From IMG/VR virus record IMGVR_UViG_3300022856_000003: a stretch of 64,000 nucleotides of DNA. One strand, given 5' to 3'. A program made the position numbers and the translations under genes. Shown piece after piece: positions 5,983 through 47,317 of the stretch. Each line of letters starts with the position of its first letter. Positions within the stretch are counted from its first letter, which is position 1. The notes under the pieces were generated by a model, which saw only the letters and a list, made by a program, of their open reading frames with translations, was not told where the DNA came from and did not search any database. This DNA is from a virus.

Positions 5983-6603
5983 ATGAGTGAACCAACCCAG
6001 ATCCTCGTTCCATGGTCAGGTGGAGCCGACTCGACTCTCGCGCTGATGCTCGCCCTGGCGAAGTATCCGAAGATCACTCGGGCCATGGTTGTCGATTGTA
6101 CGAACTTCCCGAGGAAGCAATTCAAGGGAGAGGCCAGAGCCAGGCTTCACGCACATGCCTTCCTGGTGTCGAAGTTCGAGCTACCGAAGCACTGGCTATT
6201 CACTGTGAAGCTCGATTACCCCGCGCTCGACATGGGTAGCTGGAGTGTTGGGCAGGCCGTTGCGCTTCATCAAGCCGCCTCGATGGCCGTGAAAGACGGT
6301 GGTGAGATCTGGTGGGGCAGCATCCGAAGCGATGACTTCTGGACCTACTACGACAGGTACGCGAACCTCCACACTGCCCTCAAGGGAGTGATGGACAAGG
6401 ATTACAAGAACTTCTTCCCTTTGATGCACAAGAAGAAGTTTGAGGTCCTCGACGACCTCAAAGCGTTCGGAGTCACCGAGAAGATGCGGTGGTCCTGTTC
6501 TCAGAACTCGACACGACCTTGTCAAAAGTGTGACTCCTGCATCACTGAGGCCCTTGCCCACGTTGAGCGAGACCTGACCCCGAAAGGTGGCGTGAAGCCA
6601 TGA
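5983..6603 (+). CDS. queC: QueC-like PP-loop ATPase (7-cyano-7-deazaguanine synthase family)
   Basis: N-terminal WSGGADST PP-loop and C-terminal SC-x7-CQKCDSC zinc motif. Confidence 0.75.
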   Translation: MSEPTQILVPWSGGADSTLALMLALAKYPKITRAMVVDCTNFPRKQFKGEARARLHAHAFLVSKFELPKHWLFTVKLDYPALDMGSWSVGQAVALHQAASMAVKDGGEIWWGSIRSDDFWTYYDRYANLHTALKGVMDKDYKNFFPLMHKKKFEVLDDLKAFGVTEKMRWSCSQNSTRPCQKCDSCITEALAHVERDLTPKGGVKP

Positions 6604-12264: not shown

Positions 12265-15078
12265 ATGAGCAAGAAGAATCGATTTGGCCCGAAGGGCGAC
12301 TGGAACCGCAAGTTCCACCCTGGGAAGGTCAAGAAGGCTGATCTCGACGACGACCTCGGCATAATCTTCGACATGGCGGCTGAGATCCATGCACAGGACA
12401 AGTCGCTGTTCGGTGAACTGTTCGATCAGATCTCCTCGCAACCCTCCCTTGTGAAGAAGTCGGCCTCTGTGACATTCGTTCCTGCTGCACAGAAGTCGCC
12501 GCAAGAACTGTTGCTGTCAGGTGAGATCAATGACTTCAAGAACTCCATCGCCGCCGCTTTCAGTATTCCGAAGGAGTTCATCTTCGGAGCGGACGAAGAT
12601 CCACCAGTCGTCCTGTGTAAAGGATGCGACCCGACACTGCTACAGGCCGATGTGGAGTGGTGCGAGATCTGCTACGTGGCAGGGATCAACCCCTGCGGTG
12701 AGATCCCAATGGATGGCCCACCCACGGACGAAATCGATTTCGCGACTCTGACCCCAGAGGTCTTCGCAAAGATGACCTCGTCTCAGCGCGGATCCATGGT
12801 CGGGAAGATCATGAAAGCGGTGGGCAAGTACTCACTCAATGGGCTCGATGTTCCGAAGGAACTGCTTGATGCTGTACAGGCTATGGCTCTAGCCGCGACG
12901 ACCCATCTCGACGCCAGCCCTGAGAATGACGAGCTACAGAACAAGATCAAGATCCCCAAATACGACATCAAGTTCGTCAAGGACAAGCCAGGGGCAGGAC
13001 TCATTCCTTGCGGACCGGTGACGCCGACACCCATGCCCTACCCGAAGTCTGGGCTCTGGGGGAATCTGAGCGCTCACGACCTCATCAGTGTCCAGCCGAT
13101 GACGAACCCAGCCGGAGCTAAGTTCCACTTCGACTACAAGTACGCCGAGGACGCCGAGAGCGAGGGCGTGGTCGTCGAGGACGAGGGGCTCCTGCTCGCT
13201 TCTCTCGGGTATAGCGACGGAGACATCAAGAAGATCCTCGCCGACAAGGCTGAGGCGAAGAAGAAGGAGTGGCAAGACTCTCTCCCTGGCCTGTCCGACA
13301 TCAAGCTGACGAAGACAGAGGTCACGGTCCACCCTGACAAGAAGCTCAAAGCCAAATGGGGTGTCGAACCCGTTGAGGACTTCAACAGTCCCGACAGCAT
13401 TCAGTCTGAGGCTGACCTGATAGGTGAATGGCTAGAGGACACAGGCGTGACGCCGACAGTGCTACCCAACCCGACAGATTTCGATGAGGACACTCTCGCC
13501 GCGTTCGCTGAGGCCAAGCTCAACAAACAGAAGGTCGCCCTGCTGGTGAAGGACTGGAGAAAGGTCCACCCTGGTCAGTCATTGCCACCGTTCTGTAAGA
13601 AGCATTCCGACTACGGCGCGATGATGTTCGGTGAGATCCTTGTCCACTGCGACAATGGGAACGGAACCCTGACCCTAGTCACAGGTGTGGTTGTCCCACA
13701 CTCGAGCGAAGGTGTGCAGATCATCGTGGAGAAGTCTCTTGCCTCCTCTGGAGGTGTGGGATTGAGCGACATGGGAGAAGCACTAGCCGACGTGGTCAAT
13801 AGCTCCCTGGATCTGCCACCACTGAAAGCAATCGACTACTTCCTTGCTATAGGCGTCTCAGGCTCGGACGCCCCGACCTACCTCCCACAGGGCTGCTACA
13901 TCGGAGCTGGCACGAAGAACATCGTATGGGGAGTGCCAGGCTCTCAACACGCTGTGACTGTGGCTGCCATCCACGAGAACCACTTCACCCTAGTGACAGG
14001 CGTGAACGTCCCGATCAAGCCGCCAATAGGCCCGAAGCCGATCTTCATGGATGCAGACGGCCAGAAGCCGATCTTCGCGCCCTACATCCCAGTCGAGTCG
14101 ACCCCCACGCTCGAGCTGAAAACAGCCAACGCCAAGTACGCGAAAAAGACTCTCAACCCGGCGCACTACGGTGTGGTCCCTCTCTCGAAGGGAAAGACGC
14201 AGACCGCTGTCGCAGCGAAGATGACCATCAAGGGCGTAAGCCAATCGATGATCTTCTTCGACGCCCAGACCGGGACCGAGTACTACATCGACCCCGTAAC
14301 TGGAGATCTTCACGAGGTGACTCGAGTCGTGACCAACGAAGACACCCTGACCGTGACAGTCATACCCAACAGTAAGAGCACGTTCTTTCCGGTGTCTCCA
14401 CTAGATGTCAAGAACGGAACACTGCCCTTCTCTATCAAGATGGCGATGAAAGCCAAGGCTGTCCTAGAGGCCAAGATCGCGCAGGAGACTGAGGAGATGG
14501 CTGACTTCAAGGAGCTGATGGGTGCTCCCCTCAAGGACAAGACCTCGTCAACGGACCAGTACAGCCCGATTCCCAAGCCCATCGTCTACCGAAAGAAGCT
14601 CCTCGGCGTGACCGTGGAACACATCCAATCGGAGCTGCTACCAGATGGTGAGAGCTTCCAGTACTACAAGGACGTAGTGACCGGAGACCTCCACAAGATC
14701 GTGGAAGCATCGAGCGGATGGGCCACATCCAAGGACGATGCGAAGACGTGGGTAATCGTCGAGGAGAACCCGGAAGCCACAGCTCCACCGACACACCCAC
14801 TGCTGCATAAGCTGAACACGAAGAAGAAAGTCAACGGTGATGTAGCAAGCCTCGAGGCTGAGGAGCACGTAGACGAGAATGGCGACCTCACTGTGAAGTG
14901 GGCTCCCAAAGCCAAGATGGTCACCCACACCGCTTCCTTCAAGAACAATGAGAAGCCTGAGAACCCAGACGACTTCATGTACGCAATGGAACAAGCTCAA
15001 GCTGACCGCATTCAGGCGAAGCTCGACGCAACACCACCATGGGAACAAGCACTCGACCTACTACACGACATGGACTAG
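12265..15078 (+). CDS. Large (937 aa) mosaic protein containing colinear gp23-type major capsid fragments and a portal-like peptide
   Basis: Probable start MSKKNRF at 12265, just after the previous stop. Motifs: AHDLISVQPMTNPAG..F.FDYKY; KKLKAKWGVEPVEDFNSPDSIQSEADL; FAPYIPVESTP; KYAKKTLNPAHYG. Confidence 0.65.
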   Translation: MSKKNRFGPKGDWNRKFHPGKVKKADLDDDLGIIFDMAAEIHAQDKSLFGELFDQISSQPSLVKKSASVTFVPAAQKSPQELLLSGEINDFKNSIAAAFSIPKEFIFGADEDPPVVLCKGCDPTLLQADVEWCEICYVAGINPCGEIPMDGPPTDEIDFATLTPEVFAKMTSSQRGSMVGKIMKAVGKYSLNGLDVPKELLDAVQAMALAATTHLDASPENDELQNKIKIPKYDIKFVKDKPGAGLIPCGPVTPTPMPYPKSGLWGNLSAHDLISVQPMTNPAGAKFHFDYKYAEDAESEGVVVEDEGLLLASLGYSDGDIKKILADKAEAKKKEWQDSLPGLSDIKLTKTEVTVHPDKKLKAKWGVEPVEDFNSPDSIQSEADLIGEWLEDTGVTPTVLPNPTDFDEDTLAAFAEAKLNKQKVALLVKDWRKVHPGQSLPPFCKKHSDYGAMMFGEILVHCDNGNGTLTLVTGVVVPHSSEGVQIIVEKSLASSGGVGLSDMGEALADVVNSSLDLPPLKAIDYFLAIGVSGSDAPTYLPQGCYIGAGTKNIVWGVPGSQHAVTVAAIHENHFTLVTGVNVPIKPPIGPKPIFMDADGQKPIFAPYIPVESTPTLELKTANAKYAKKTLNPAHYGVVPLSKGKTQTAVAAKMTIKGVSQSMIFFDAQTGTEYYIDPVTGDLHEVTRVVTNEDTLTVTVIPNSKSTFFPVSPLDVKNGTLPFSIKMAMKAKAVLEAKIAQETEEMADFKELMGAPLKDKTSSTDQYSPIPKPIVYRKKLLGVTVEHIQSELLPDGESFQYYKDVVTGDLHKIVEASSGWATSKDDAKTWVIVEENPEATAPPTHPLLHKLNTKKKVNGDVASLEAEEHVDENGDLTVKWAPKAKMVTHTASFKNNEKPENPDDFMYAMEQAQADRIQAKLDATPPWEQALDLLHDMD

Positions 15079-24715: not shown

Positions 24716-25784
24716 TCGTTCCCAAGGCGAGTTCTGGGTCCACCGGAAGTACGCCGAACTCGTCAGCTACATGGTCGACTGCGGCGGATGCGAAGCCGAG
24801 AGCGAGGAGGAATGGCGTCTCCTGGTGTTCGAGCCCGCCTACGGCCAGTTACACGGGGATGCCAACGACGTAGAAGATACCACCGTTGTCCACATCACCC
24901 AGGGAGAGATGGCCGGAGGTGGCTACTCGGTCTCCGAGAGCATGGCTGGTCTAGGCATCCCGTTCCAGCACTACGGGAGCCGCCACTACATGTGGGCTGA
25001 GTACCGTAGTTGCTCTCTCGGCAAGCCAGGAGACTGGGGAAACTACGACTACGAGGGCGGGTACTGCCTGGAGTTCGGCAACGACTCAAAGCCTATCCCT
25101 AAGCATGTGGAGGTCATTGGGGCCTTTCATCACAGATGGCTCAAGATCGGACGCATCAACCTGGGGGCTTACCCCTATGTCCCGAAAGACGGCAGCGTGG
25201 GTGCGTGGTGGTTGAAGTACGTGGTTGAGAGGAAGGTCGAGGAGGCTGAGGCGGCTGAGAACAGTGTCGTCAAGGACATGTCGACTCAGATGGCTCAAGA
25301 GATCGACGCCGACATCATCAAGACGTTGAACGCTGGTTTCCAGAAAACAACGTCCGCGCTCGATGACGCGCAAGAGAAGCTCAAGCAGTTGAAGCTCAAG
25401 AAGGACCTCCTTGCATGGTCGGCGAAGAAGAAGGCCGCGAAGAAGAAGGCTAAGCTCGAGAAGCTCAAGGCGAAGAAGAAGCTCGTTGAGAAGGTCGTTG
25501 AGACGGCCATGGTCCAGAGCATGAAGAAGGACTTCAATATCGACTACTTCTGCGCTTCCTGTGAGGATCTCGGTTGCTTCCAGTGCGCGGAGAGTGAGCC
25601 TGAATCTTCCTGTACCGAATGCGACGGATCGGGTTGCTACGAATGTGAGGATGTCGTCGGGAAGTTCTTGCCGGATGCTGAGAACGGCACGGTCTGTAAG
25701 AAGCATGGCCTCTACGCCTGCTTTTCATGTGTTCCTGGCGCAGTCGAGCCTGATGTTCTGGACATCATCTACAACACGGACTGA
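24708..25784 (+). CDS. Mosaic hypothetical protein with a gp23-like helix, a Lys-rich coil and three Cys clusters
   Basis: ENSVVKDMSTQMAQEIDADIIKTL; KKKAAKKKAKLEKLKAKKK; CASCEDLGCFQC, CTECDGSGCYEC, CKKHGLYACFSC. Confidence 0.6.
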   Translation: MSDRSQGEFWVHRKYAELVSYMVDCGGCEAESEEEWRLLVFEPAYGQLHGDANDVEDTTVVHITQGEMAGGGYSVSESMAGLGIPFQHYGSRHYMWAEYRSCSLGKPGDWGNYDYEGGYCLEFGNDSKPIPKHVEVIGAFHHRWLKIGRINLGAYPYVPKDGSVGAWWLKYVVERKVEEAEAAENSVVKDMSTQMAQEIDADIIKTLNAGFQKTTSALDDAQEKLKQLKLKKDLLAWSAKKKAAKKKAKLEKLKAKKKLVEKVVETAMVQSMKKDFNIDYFCASCEDLGCFQCAESEPESSCTECDGSGCYECEDVVGKFLPDAENGTVCKKHGLYACFSCVPGAVEPDVLDIIYNTD

Positions 25785-26101
25785 AATCGATTTCGCAGGA
25801 CGCCGTCGCGTTGCTACGCGCGACCCGTTGTGATACTCTATCGATGTTCAAACGAATGCCCGTCAAGGTGACGGTGGAGGTGAACAGTGGCTTCTCGACG
25901 ATCTCAATGGAACAACGGAGCTAAGCGGTGCGTACAACGTCACCGTGGAGTTCAGACCCAATCAAACCTTGACGGTAAGAAGGCTCAAGAACGCCTTCAA
26001 GAGCGTCAAGTCCGTGCCGCTGCTCGTCGTGAAATCCGACGTGAGCGATGGTTTCAAGATCTCCTTGAGAGCTTCGAGCGTGAGAGCTTTGGACGACGCT
26101 G

Positions 26102-26533
26102 GTGAGTCAGGCCGACATTCTCAAGAAGCCCTGCCCAGGGTGCCCTTTCTCTCGAAAGACGGATCCGAAGTACCTCAAGTCTCGAGGCGAAGACGTGCGC
26201 CGATTCATCGGACAGTCCGTCGGCCCATTCTTGCTCCCGTGTCACACGTTCGCGGACAAGGAAGACTGGCCTCTCGACGTGGAGCGGCCACAGTGCGTGG
26301 GTGCTGCAATGCACCGAGACCTCATCGGCGTTGCGGACAGTCTCCCAGAACAGCTCACCAGAGCCACAGGTGACGCTGAGGAGGTCTTTGAGTCCTCTGC
26401 CGCGTACATGGCCTATCACGATGGCTGCACCGTCGAGGAGGCCGTAGAGAAGCTCGACAACTATCCTGTGAATCGTCTCTTCTACGACGAGATCGCTCGT
26501 TGTCATCGATCAGGACGAAAGGTGAAGGCATGA
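26102..26533 (+). CDS. DUF6283-like Cys-containing protein
   Basis: KPCPGCPF...PCHT...QCVGA pattern. Confidence 0.5.
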   Translation: MSQADILKKPCPGCPFSRKTDPKYLKSRGEDVRRFIGQSVGPFLLPCHTFADKEDWPLDVERPQCVGAAMHRDLIGVADSLPEQLTRATGDAEEVFESSAAYMAYHDGCTVEEAVEKLDNYPVNRLFYDEIARCHRSGRKVKA

Positions 26534-27628
26534 GCGTCAAGCTGTACGGAGGTCGCATCCGCAGGATGGGCATCACGAACATCCATGCGTGGCAGTTGAA
26601 TCTACAGAAGGCTGCTGACCAGATGACTCAGGCCGCGCGGTTGTTCGCGTATGACTTCGTCTTCAATCAGGCAGTACGTCGTGCAGACCTTCTCGCCTGC
26701 GGTATGCCGTTTCACGGCGAGTTCCCCTGTGCCCCTGACCAGGCTGCATTCCAAGACCCTGCGAATGCATTGAGTCCGTTCAGCGCGGCCTGCGAACTCT
26801 ACCAAAAGCGGGTCGAGAATCTAAAGAAGGGCACACGCGATCCCCTGACGGATCGCTCGATGGAGCTGTGTTGGCACATGCAGATCGACGGGAGCATCCT
26901 GGTCATCCTCTACGGCGAGCGAGATCAGAAAGCGATGGCCACGAAGCTCCTCGGTCTCGATGACTACCACTACCAGAACCAGTCTGATCCCTCGGAGGAC
27001 TGCTCCAAGCAGGAGTGGGCCGAGCGCGGGACAGCATGGTCGACCCTGTTGGACGGATGGAATGCGGCTCCCGCCGCGAGGATGTCCACCTTCCAACTGG
27101 CTCCCCCACCCGAGTTCCTCATCTGGTGGAAGGGTCACCACCCTGAGAACCTGACGTGCGACACGCTTCCCGAGCGACTCCACCAGCTCGCCACCGAGCG
27201 TATCCACCTCGAGCACCCACTCCCGAAGAAGGATGGAGAGACCATCGGCGATTTCGTCGGGAACATGGGTGCCCACATCACCGACATCAAGAGCAGGACG
27301 AAGCCGGGAGGTGATCTCCAGAACCGATGGCTCGAGATCCTCGTTGACTGCAACGAACGCATCCCGGCGGAACCCAGTCTGGAGTGGGTCAAGACGCGAC
27401 GTGCCGCACCCACGGTCGGACCTACGGCGCTCGATGCTGCTCTCGACGAGATTGAGAAGTCGAAGGACTCCTCATGATCGACCGGCTCCATCGCCTCCTG
27501 GGGCTCGCCGTGGTTACGCCCTATGTGGTCGCCTGCGTTCTGTTCGCAGGGGTCGGTGTATGGTTGCTGTCACGACCTGACTCGCACGCAATCACCGTGG
27601 CCTGGTTCAAGTGGTGGGGGTTCTGGAC

Positions 27629-43461: not shown

Positions 43462-43827
43462 GTGATCTCGCTTCGAGCAGGCCAGAGAGACTGGTTCATG
43501 TACGTCGTGGTCACGGCGACAGGCACCCTCTACTGCGGTGTCTCTACGGACGTTCATGCCCGAGTTGCCACGCACAACAGAGGCAAGGGTGCGAAGTACC
43601 TCCAGGGCGTCCGACTCCCCTGCAAGCTCCTCGTCGCGTGGTGCTTCGCCGGGCCAGACGCTCATGGAAACGCCTTGCGCTGTGAATACTGGTTCAAGCA
43701 TCAGACGAGATCGCAGAAGAGGAGATTCATCCTGATGGAAGTGAACCTCCCGGAAGAGTTCAAGATCGCGTTCGGAGGTCAGGAGATCCCGAGAGAAGAG
43801 ATCCGAGCCCTGTTGCCTGCCTTTTGA
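43462..43827 (+). CDS. GIY-YIG nuclease, UPF0213/YhbQ type
   Basis: WFMYVV...GTLYCGVSTDVHARVATHNRGKGAKY...ALRCEYWFK. Confidence 0.85.
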   Translation: MISLRAGQRDWFMYVVVTATGTLYCGVSTDVHARVATHNRGKGAKYLQGVRLPCKLLVAWCFAGPDAHGNALRCEYWFKHQTRSQKRRFILMEVNLPEEFKIAFGGQEIPREEIRALLPAF

Positions 43828-43970: not shown

Positions 43971-44363
43971 ATGCGTCTCAAGACCAGAATCAGCCTGAGC
44001 CTCTCTTCGACCAGTGCCGAGGAGATGGATGTCGCAAACCAGGCTCCGTCGAGCTACGAGGTCACCGACGAACTCGGTGAGGGCTCTGCTCGCACCTACA
44101 AGGTGCTCACGGGAGTTGCTTCCCAGGCTGTGGATCTGGCCGGTCTGACTGCGGTCAACTACATCTACGTCCGAACGAACAAGGCGATCACGTTCCACAT
44201 CACGGACGCTGGTGGCACCTACGACATCCCGGTGGCAATCCCAGACGGGTTCGACTACGGGTATCTCTCGCTCAACACGACTGCCGTCACCGCACTGGCA
44301 GTGTCGAATGCAAGTGGGTCGACCGCTCGTCTGATGGTGGTTCTCGCTGGAGACCCGGAGTAG
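43971..44363 (+). CDS. Small beta-rich protein, possibly virion-associated
   Basis: Thr/Val/Ala-rich beta-strand pattern (VTALAVSNASGSTARLMVVLAG). Heads the cluster of leader-bearing small genes. Confidence 0.4.
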   Translation: MRLKTRISLSLSSTSAEEMDVANQAPSSYEVTDELGEGSARTYKVLTGVASQAVDLAGLTAVNYIYVRTNKAITFHITDAGGTYDIPVAIPDGFDYGYLSLNTTAVTALAVSNASGSTARLMVVLAGDPE

Positions 44364-44365
44364 TC

Positions 44366-44593
44366 GTGACCTCAGAGTTTGAGGACATTCTCGCTGGCGC
44401 AGTCGGTGGTACACGAAATCGATTTCGCGATGTGAAGTCCCCACTCCCTGGTGGCGAAGTCCAGGAAATCGGGATGCTTTTCATCAACCGCGCGCTCGAC
44501 GCAAGGCTCTCGCGGATAGCCAATGATCGTGGTACAAATGTGTCCCAGGTCCTCACAGCAGCCCTCGACTTGCTCGAGTTGGAGCCGAAGTAA
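44366..44593 (+). CDS. Putative ribbon-helix-helix DNA-binding protein
   Basis: IGMLFINRALDARLSRIANDRGTNVSQVLTAALDLL. Confidence 0.55.
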   Translation: MTSEFEDILAGAVGGTRNRFRDVKSPLPGGEVQEIGMLFINRALDARLSRIANDRGTNVSQVLTAALDLLELEPK

Positions 44594-45054
44594 TGAGTCA
44601 CATCGCAGCAGATCTACGCTCTCTTACCGAGGTCGAGTTCACCACCACGGCTCCCATCGTTGAAGACGACGCCCCAGTCGATGAGCCTGGTGAGGCAAGT
44701 GAACTGAACGAGGACGCTCCCGAGGTCATTGGACCGCCCCCGCGCCCCGCCGCTGAGGACGGAGGCCAGCTCCTGGAGTGCTACGACACCGTCATGGCGT
44801 CTTCCGGCCACTACCACGACCGCACGCTCGAAGAGAAGCTCCGAGAAGCCTGTGGGACGCTCAGGTACGCCATCAGCGAAGAGGCCGAGAAGGGCCTGGG
44901 CGACGATGGCCGAACCCGCCGCAAGATCAACGAGGACGAGGACTACCCCTGGGCTGCGGTCGAGAAGATGCTCACCAAGCGCATCCATCCGAACCTGTTC
45001 AAGTCCCTCGTCGCGGAGGCCCGAGGCGTTCTCGAGGCTTACTACGAGTAGGCC

Positions 45055-47317
45055 ATGAAGTCCTTCATCACAGAACTGTCTGAGCCCACCGTCTCGGACC
45101 TCGACGAGGGCGGCTTCGGCTCCTCGCTCAAGGACGCGAAGAAGGCGGTCGACTCTTTGAAGTCGTCGTCGCACAACATCGTCAAGATGGGCACGGTGGG
45201 ATTGCCGAAGACGAAGTTCGCTCTGAACGACGGGACCACTGCTTACGTCTTCGAGCTGGTCAGTATCCAGTAGGAGTAGATGTGAAGAATCTGATCAAAG
45301 AACTGTCCGAAGATCCCGAAGAGACCGACGATCTCGAGGAGGCATCCGGCTCCTACGAGGGTGAGGGGATCCAGTTTACCGACAAGGAGGCTCGTGCCTT
45401 CCGTCTCGGAGTGGACCTCGGAAGGTTGTCTGGCCAGAAGAAGCTCAGACGTGTTGATTTCGAGATCAACAGCGACAACTTCGCGTTCGTGAGTTTCAAG
45501 GCGAAGAAGAAGGTCGGTGCTCACATCCTGATGTACCTCCGTGGATGGTGGAAGGTCACCTACCACTTCGACACCGAGAGTTTCGAGTCGAAGTGAAGCG
45601 CCTCATCGCCCATCTCGCAGAGTCCGCATCGGAACCTGGGATCGTCTGGTTCGCAGCGAACGAGTGGCCGAAGACATCTTCGCTCGCCACTGGCTCAAAG
45701 GCCGCTGAGAGGTACCCGTTGGTTCCCTTCGCGACCGTCTTCAAGAGTGGTGATCATCCGGGTGCGAACTTCAAGAGGAAGGACCTCCCAGGGAAGTTCG
45801 TCGTGAAGAAGGGTCGAGACCACTTCCTGATCGACTCGGGCGACAAGGACTACGGCAAGCGAGTCGCGAAGTTGCCGAAGTTCAAACCTGTGGCGCGCTT
45901 CCAGTGAAATCGCTCATCGACGACCTCCGCGAGATGACCCTCGCCGGGAACGTCGCCACCGTGGCAGTCCCATTGGGAGCCGTCCTCCGACGCCCATGGC
46001 CTGACATGTGGAAGAAGCGAAAGAAGCGCAAGAAGACTGAGTCCCTCGACGAGTCAGCGTCCGTCTGGAAGCAGATGGTCGACATCGATTCCAAGCTCGA
46101 CAGCGAAGCGCAGAACTGGAATCACAACCTCGCCGCTGTCTTCAAGCTCTATGAGAAGTTCGCATCGAGGCCAGCGAAGCTCGCAATAATTCTGGCCAAG
46201 TTCGACGCCCCGCACTGGCTGTCGACTGCGAAGGCGAAGCACGGCTTGGAACAGGTTCGCCTGCACGACAAGGCGCTGGCCAAAAGCATCATCCGTGAGA
46301 TCCGTCGCTGGGATGGCATGAAGGACGCGACATGAAGGCACTGATCAAAGATCTGGACGAGGTTGCTGTCCCACCGAAAGCCCGGAGGGTGGAGGTTACG
46401 ATGGCAATCGAGGGGAAGACTCTGATCATCGAGACCCCTGCTGGAACGATGGAGGTCCTCAACTTCAAGAAGTCGGCGATCGGTGAGGAACCAGCGCGGT
46501 TCAATGGTCACGTACCGAAGACCTGGATGAAGTCGTGAAGGCACTGATCAAGGCACTCAAGGGTCGTGACGCAGAATCCATCCGAGTGGTGGTACGCGCT
46601 GAACTCGAGGTTTCAGGGTTCGTTACCGTCGAGGACGGGAAGATCAAGGCGTTCGTCGGTCCTGACAAGAAAGAGATCGAGTCACAGATGCGTGATGGTC
46701 TCGTGAAGGTCCAGTCCCTCATCGGAGCATCTAGGCGCGATGTTCTCGCTGGGGCAAAGAAATCGGGACTGGTATAGTCCGGATGTAGCCCGCGACGGTG
46801 CGGGCCAGGAGGTTCCATGAAGTACCGCTGTTGCAACTGTTCCCACATCGACACCAATGGCTCGAAGTGCTCGAAGTGCGGGTCCAACTCGCTCGAGACC
46901 CTCTCGCCCGCCAACCAGCCCACTGCTGAGAGCGCACCCCAGGGTGGTCCACAGCTTCTCTGCGAAGTGCCCGACGATCGAAAGCCCGTAGGCAACCAGA
47001 TCAACGGGTGAAATCGATTTCGCGGAGAAGACATGAAGGCATTGATCCAGTCGATCGACGAAAGCAAGTCGGTACCGCTCAAGGTCCTACGCGCACTCTC
47101 GTCGGGTGTGTTCGGTAACGCGAAGTCGTCGATCCTGTATTGGGCCGATGGTGGCGTCTACAAGATCACGTCTAGTGGCGAGGTCTCGTTCGATAAGAAG
47201 AAGATCGGGAAAGTGGACAGCCGTGACGATCTCCTGCTCGCTCTGTCTTCCGGTCGAGGAGGCTCGTACAAGGTCGGGTCGAAGACCGTGAAGTTCGGAG
47301 CTTCGTCGAAGAAATGA
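45055..47317 (+). CDS. Cluster of small putative internal head proteins with 10-aa N-terminal capsid-targeting leaders
   Basis: 45055 MKSFITELSE; 45282 MKNLIKELSE; 45593 MKRLIAHLAE; 45904 MKSLIDDLRE; 46332 MKALIKDLDE; 46535 MKALIKALKG; 47033 MKALIQSIDE. Confidence 0.75.
46817..47011 (+). CDS. Small zinc-ribbon protein
   Basis: MKYRCCNCSH...KCSKCGS. AGGAGG RBS. Confidence 0.6.
   Translation: MKYRCCNCSHIDTNGSKCSKCGSNSLETLSPANQPTAESAPQGGPQLLCEVPDDRKPVGNQING

Follow-up and report, generated by a model that had tools for sequence, protein, structure and literature searches.

In the IMG/VR virus record IMGVR_UViG_3300022856_000003, of which we analyzed a stretch of 64,000 nucleotides (the window), eight open reading frames (ORFs) on the + strand encode small proteins that begin with the same type of short leader; together they span about 2.7 kb (44593-47317). 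Judging from the sequence, we think it probable that an uncultured T4-type phage here encodes a cassette of internal proteins (Ip-type) and that their leader is a cleavable capsid-targeting signal. This reading accounts best for the data because the leader ends at a fixed distance from Met-1 in a near-invariant Glu, is selected as a peptide, is followed in one member by a conserved second site, and recurs in T4-type phages that encode a prohead protease.

A common leader on eight unrelated small proteins

The leader has the consensus M-K-x-[LF]-I-x-x-[LI]-x-E, which six of the eight proteins (g0 to g7, in their order on the DNA) match exactly; g6 has Gly at residue 10, and g0 carries a 13-residue variant ending in L-T-E. 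The original prediction for this DNA, a cassette of injected proteins with T4-style leaders, had quoted eight N-termini, and all of them were correct. The array opens with g0 (44593-45051), an acidic protein of 152 aa (isoelectric point, pI, of the mature part 4.4) with seven additional [LI]-x-E sites beyond its leader. Next come g1 (45055-45273; 72 aa, ATG start), in which Pro follows the canonical 10-residue leader, and g2 (45282-45596; 104 aa, GTG start), in which the canonical leader is followed by an acidic linker and a second site, L-E-E before Ala, at residues 18-20. The genes g3 (45593-45907; 104 aa) and g4 (45904-46335; 143 aa) encode basic orphans, both with a pI of 10.1, a canonical leader and a GTG start that overlaps the stop codon of the preceding gene. 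For g3, the GTG at 45593 was chosen over a longer ORF with an ATG at 45545; in g4, a Lys/Arg run is followed by L-D-E and Ser, the Glu being residue 50. The ATG of g5 (46332-46538; 68 aa, pI 9.7, canonical leader) overlaps the g4 stop, and the GTG of g6 (46535-46777; 80 aa, pI 9.2) overlaps that of g5. A leaderless Cys-rich ORF of 64 aa (46817-47011, + strand, CxxC...CxxC), which is outside the leader set, interrupts the array before its last member, g7 (47033-47317; 94 aa, pI 10.1, ATG start), whose canonical leader has Ile at residue 8. GTG is the start codon of four members (g2, g3, g4 and g6), and public gene calls agree on the starts of g2, g3 and g4. Because four junctions are stop/start overlaps of the GTGA or ATGA type, the array reads as one translationally coupled operon, which includes the two genes just 5' of it (43971-44593).

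The leader is confined to this region. The strict pattern matched seven times in the 64 kb, both strands included, and all seven matches fall in 45055-47317. With a leave-one-out position matrix, the leader starts scored between 7.9 and 23.3 bits, compared with a maximum of 5.2 among some 2,750 other candidate starts. The leader is also conserved at the level of the peptide. Over 30 bases on either side of the leader, pairwise DNA identity was 0.29 (upstream) and 0.31 (downstream), as against 0.66 at codon positions 1 and 2 and 0.42 at position 3 of the leader itself, where the codons for the conserved Lys, Leu and Glu residues varied synonymously. Since third codon positions vary and the flanks are at background, what is selected is the ten residues, and neither a DNA repeat nor an RNA element.

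Past the leader the proteins have nothing recognizable in common. BLAST found no pairwise similarity among the mature parts of g0-g7, no Pfam or PHROG family matched any of the eight, and a protein atlas returned sub-threshold matches to the cargo, with nothing above noise. In five of the eight, the mature part has a pI between 9.2 and 10.1, and Lys makes up 10-15% of g1-g7, in agreement with the predicted unrelated and mostly Lys-rich mature parts; what the eight share is the leader alone, on bodies that are small and mostly basic. Among 5.8 billion proteins, g3 and g4 had no homologue besides themselves, and a single-sequence AlphaFold2 model of g4 was all-helical at low confidence (a predicted local distance difference test score, pLDDT, of 46).

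The protein g2 was more informative. A HMMER search of 1.84 billion representatives gave one real relative (P0004), encoded on a 582-bp ENA contig, which is 44% identical to g2 and has retained a leader of the same format, so that conservation of the peptide extends to a homologue. P0004 also keeps the junction at the second g2 site, D-L-x-E followed by A-S-G, although the acidic linker in front of it is four residues shorter. Two L-x-E sites kept across a disposable linker would suit processing better than simple docking. Second sites had been proposed for several members, and they do exist, in g1 at residues 16-18 (L-D-E), in g2 at 18-20 and in g4 at 48-50. However, most of them occur at chance frequency: the mature parts contain seven [LI]-x-E matches against 3.9 expected from shuffles, or 1.18 per 100 residues against 1.05 in other ORFs, and we saw no depletion of the motif in the mature parts. 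Only the g2 site has independent support.

The same leaders in two phages with a prohead protease

Degenerate versions of the leader pattern were scanned over IMG/VR, and two contigs that stood out, G001 (161 kb) and G002 (168.5 kb), both with a GC content of 68-70%, were analyzed whole. Both encode a Gp23 capsid protein (about 1e-63) and a Peptidase_S77 protein, that is, a member of the gp21 family (66 bits in G002). Strict leaders were found at six start codons in G001 and eleven in G002, all of them ATG and in frames with high GC at third codon positions, and none in the other five frames. The 13-residue class seen in g0, with the pattern M-x-x-[LI]-x-x-x-L-R-x-L-x-E, recurred at four ATG starts, two in each contig, again with none in the other frames. 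Both leader classes of the window are therefore present in protease-encoding phages.

The proteins that carry these leaders resemble the window set in organization. The thirteen leader proteins of G002 are unrelated to one another and to those of the window, nine of the thirteen are basic, and their genes form arrays at about 42.7-49.1, 103-107 and 142.4-143.4 kb; Pfam matched none of ten leader proteins from the two contigs. As in the window, the last leader position is E or occasionally G. Given a hydrophobic prefix, residue 10 was Glu in six of seven cases in the window, 10 of 18 in G002 and six of nine in G001, with Gly the next commonest residue, and the E-to-G variant of the g6 type occurred three times in G002. 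The contigs differ from the window in having mostly Arg at position 2, Leu and Ile equally often at position 5, and mostly Ala or Gly directly after the leader Glu (P1'), and they have no cargo in common with it.

The format extends to the head module of G002, in which short leaders ending in L-x-E stand at the start of three proteins: the one encoded after the portal, the protease and the capsid protein. The capsid protein contains an L-S-E as well, at what we take to be the position where T4 gp23 is cut.

Several observations on these contigs stand apart from the leader sets. In G001 (25559-27229, minus strand; L103/L104) the Peptidase_S77 match is split into two halves, covering profile positions 11-96 and 102-184, that lie about 1.18 kb apart within one open frame of 947 aa; the protease domain therefore contains an insertion of some 390 residues, which the G002 orthologue lacks. 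A 173-aa ORF of G002 (44695-44174, minus strand) opens with a leader-like sequence and contains another, complete leader, with a start codon at 44428; it is either two genes read as one or a two-module protein with an internal processing site. One leader-like match beside the protease in the G001/G002 scan was discarded because its GTG lies inside a longer ORF, and lone leader-like N-termini in other IMG/VR contigs, which occur singly on many unrelated phage proteins, were set aside as non-diagnostic.

The leader as a probable capsid-targeting signal

The T-even phages provide the model for such a cassette. Their internal proteins Ip1, Ip2 and Ip3, and the products of polymorphic ip loci, carry a 10-residue capsid-targeting sequence that is removed by gp21 (Mullaney and Black 1996; Repoila et al. 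1994; cited in PMC3012670, PMC9026906, PMC12373910). The first 10 residues of IPIII are sufficient for packaging, residues 4 and 7 serving targeting and residues 8 and 10 processing; gp21 cuts after L/I-x-E, and Asp at residue 10 blocks processing while leaving targeting intact (PMC9026906). The T-even Ips are diverse and have the leader as their sole common part (PMC3012670), at least ten of them have been recognized through the signal sequence (PMC12373910), and their bodies are described as unrelated, small and mostly basic (PMC3012670, PMC12373910). In T4 itself (NC_000866), ipII and ipIII begin with the same 10 residues, ending in I-A-E, ipI has a leader of 19 residues ending in I-T-E, ipII has a second L-E nine residues past the first, and the ip genes lie outside the head module.

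The window leader has the same length, the M-K start, a hydrophobic face of three residues and [LI]-x-E at residues 8-10, and also comes in a longer class (13 residues in g0, 19 in T4 Ip1). As in Ip2, some members have a second L-x-E shortly past the first, and here too small, mostly basic and mutually unrelated mature parts are encoded by genes clustered outside the head module. No homology to Ip1, Ip2 or Ip3 was found with Pfam or PHROG; such homology does not define the class, because the T-even Ips are not homologous to one another (PMC12373910). The differences are that the hydrophobic residues stand at 4, 5 and 8 instead of 4, 7 and 8, that eight genes form one coupled array whereas a T4 locus holds one or two, and that the host and the DNA modification are not those of T4 (a QueC-type gene in the window instead of glucosylated hydroxymethylcytosine). 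More distant parallels exist. The giant phages phiKZ, 201phi2-1 and SPN3US load many head-internal proteins, among them inner-body and ejection proteins, by means of N-terminal propeptides that are cut after Glu by a diverged gp21 homologue (PMC9026906, PMC5694885, PMC10052503), but their motif is [S/A/G]-x-E, the propeptides are long and lack a fixed 10-residue leader, and the cargo is large. The Dar proteins of phage P1 are capsid-carried anti-restriction proteins delivered with the DNA (PMC9024508, PMC12810830), although they depend on an ordered hierarchy of protein-protein interactions instead of a short cleavable leader, and P1 is not a T4-type phage. The principle of cargo loading is thus already known from the T-even phages; what is new here is a leader dialect of its own and a larger, coupled array.

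If the window leader works as in T4, each gene would encode a short N-terminal amphipathic helix, with Lys at residue 2, hydrophobic residues at 4, 5 and 8 and Glu at 10, by which the nascent protein would dock on the scaffolding core of the assembling prohead. On closure of the shell, a gp21-type prohead protease would cut behind the [LI]-x-E that occupies residues 8-10, or 11-13 in the long class, and some members would be cut again behind a second L-x-E a few residues on. The freed proteins, small and mostly basic, would remain with the DNA in the head and pass into the host along with it. As to the original prediction, its T4-style leader gains support from selection on the peptide, from retention in P0004 and from the presence of both leader classes on unrelated proteins of G001 and G002; the rest of it, the docking, cleavage, packaging and injection of a cassette, we infer.

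Several points weigh against this reading. In the array the P1' residues are P, D, S, M, V and S, as opposed to Ala or Gly in T4 and G002, and the Pro that follows Glu in g1 may hinder cutting, while g6 lacks the Glu at residue 10 altogether. We found neither T4 late-promoter nor sigma-70 consensus sites near the array. The 64-kb window contains no head-assembly genes, so that any prohead protease and head module of this phage would lie outside it. Moreover, G001 and G002, two related contigs that have a single protein in common with the window, were picked via the motif and are no unbiased sample. Nor is the motif diagnostic by itself, as motif-shaped N-termini are found singly in many unrelated phage proteins.

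A second type of terminal sequence is present in the same DNA. Many unrelated + strand proteins of the window end in an acidic amphipathic tail, [DE]-x-h-L-D-h-h, as do for example the ORFs with stops at 15078, 21609, 24160, 25784, 41908, 49094, 52789, 57094, 60919 and 61386. The claim that none of the leader proteins carries this C-terminal tag is true of g1-g7, and the tail of g0 is borderline. If the original count of tagged proteins, about 24, is used, the tag is on 0 of 7 leader genes compared with about 24 of 106 ORFs (p about 0.17, a rough estimate), which is not significant, and the idea of two separate addressing codes therefore lacks statistical support. A stronger form of that idea, which we hold to be possible but doubtful, is that the two codes are orthogonal, a cleavable N-terminal leader directing a large, partly enzymatic set of proteins to the head and an acidic C-terminal helix directing about thirty others to another hub, with the uncleavable G-10 variants, which recur in G002, as a deliberate core-anchored subclass. 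If this were true, nature would have built programmable systems for protein delivery in distant T4-type phages, on a scale far beyond T4.

The alternative that survives best, though we regard it as unlikely, is that the leader helix docks these proteins on a different partner shared by all of them, which could be a chaperone, an unfoldase, or a hub of host or phage origin. The leader would then correspond, at the N-terminus, to the acidic tag that many other proteins of this phage have at their C-terminus, and the array proteins would act in the cytoplasm, neither packaged nor cut. The leader is indeed short, amphipathic and acidic, as are the C-terminal tails on many ORFs, the array belongs to a single translationally coupled operon with non-structural genes around it, an AAA+ ATPase is encoded in the window, and the P1' residues here are atypical. 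However, a docking helix needs neither a fixed distance from Met-1 nor a near-invariant [LI]-x-E end at residue 10 or 13, and the second L-x-E/Ala junction that g2 and P0004 keep across a variable linker is better explained as a cleavage site. Proteins of the G002 head module open with the same format, and a position among non-structural genes is no objection to packaging, since the T4 ip genes are likewise outside the head module.

It is more improbable still that the genes are fast-diverging tandem paralogues whose shared start is a family remnant, for example an oligomerization helix, and not an address. The genes do follow one another in tandem on one strand, and g5 and g6 have almost the same leader DNA and encode proteins that both appear beta-rich past the leader. 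Against common descent, no pair shows similarity past residue 10 and lengths range from 68 to 152 aa, identity falls sharply to background right after codon 10, and the same leader stands on 13 more mutually unrelated proteins in G002. Least of all do we credit a role for the 30 bases as nucleic acid, either as an element of translation initiation or coupling or as the border of a recombination cassette, with the peptide incidental: the stop/start overlaps and the weak Shine-Dalgarno sequences at several GTG starts suggest re-initiation, and T4-type genomes do shuffle genes via short repeats (PMC2839356), but codon position 3 is the least conserved, Leu is encoded by CTG, CTC or TTG (with TTC for Phe) and Glu by GAG or GAA, the sequences upstream of the leaders are unrelated, and the amino-acid leader is kept between phages of 59% and 68-70% GC.

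Surroundings of the array and meaning of the probable cassette

The window is phage DNA with a GC content of 59%, in which essentially all convincing ORFs lie on the + strand; the 64 kb contain no tRNAs. Genes for an ATP-dependent DNA ligase, a deoxynucleoside monophosphate (dNMP) kinase and the AAA+ ATPase were recognizable by homology. The assignment of the phage to the T4-type lineage rests on a protein of 937 aa (12265-15078; 937-1012 aa for the Gp23-derived protein overall) that has weak Gp23 matches in Pfam (7e-5) and PHROGs and aligns with the Gp23-type capsid protein of G002 in three collinear blocks (E values 7e-7, 4e-6 and 4e-4). Its ends are long and unrelated to the G002 protein, and from these alignments we take it to be a remodelled extra copy of the capsid protein. 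This paralogue had no match in GenBank phages or among PDB sequences. The ligase had no match in IMG/VR, its relatives being two short, distant metagenome contigs and cultured phages at a distance; the AAA ATPase was found at 55 IMG/VR loci, none of them syntenic and none with arrays, and matched cultured phages at about 31% identity; and the DNA of the array had no match in GenBank phages.

Some features in and around the array merit description in their own right. Downstream of g6 there is a GC-rich hairpin (46788-46805) with a 6-bp stem and a 6-nt loop and without a T-run, and an AGGAGG ribosome site lies between it and the leaderless Cys-rich ORF, an arrangement that looks like an inserted, independently translated gene. 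Two copies of a palindrome with the core GAAATCGATTTC flank the array about 2.6 kb apart. The first (44414-44427) is a perfect 14-mer within the gene at 44366-44593; the second (47009-47022), in which the first C is replaced by T, lies between the Cys-rich ORF and g7. A GIY-YIG nuclease gene (43462-43827; Pfam, 2e-7) sits 0.8 kb 5' of the leader array and may, by analogy with the seg genes near variable loci of T4, be a homing-type endonuclease that promotes local gene exchange.

A QueC-type gene (5983-6603) and a nucleoside 2-deoxyribosyltransferase-like gene (1677-2645) suggest that the phage DNA may carry modified bases. If so, the phage would be exposed to modification-dependent restriction enzymes, the kind that T4 Ips counter; Ip1, Ip2 and Ip3 are inhibitors of three different GmrSD Type IV restriction enzymes (PMC12373910). 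Purely by analogy, the window cargo could be imagined to act in counter-defence, with modification-dependent restriction as one conceivable target.

If the leader works as it does in T4, a simple sequence rule marks the proteins that are co-injected with the DNA, in this phage and in other distant T4-type phages. Proteins that arrive with the DNA are the earliest to act in an infection, and each of the three T4 examples specifically inhibits Type IV restriction enzymes (PMC12373910); for these reasons, the rule provides a list of orphan proteins to screen for new counter-defence functions. The gain lies in breadth and in candidate proteins, the mechanism itself being established. T4 cargo loading would then reach lineages that have diverged widely and differ in the leader dialect they use, and these dialects would be relevant to the engineering of phage capsids as protein carriers.

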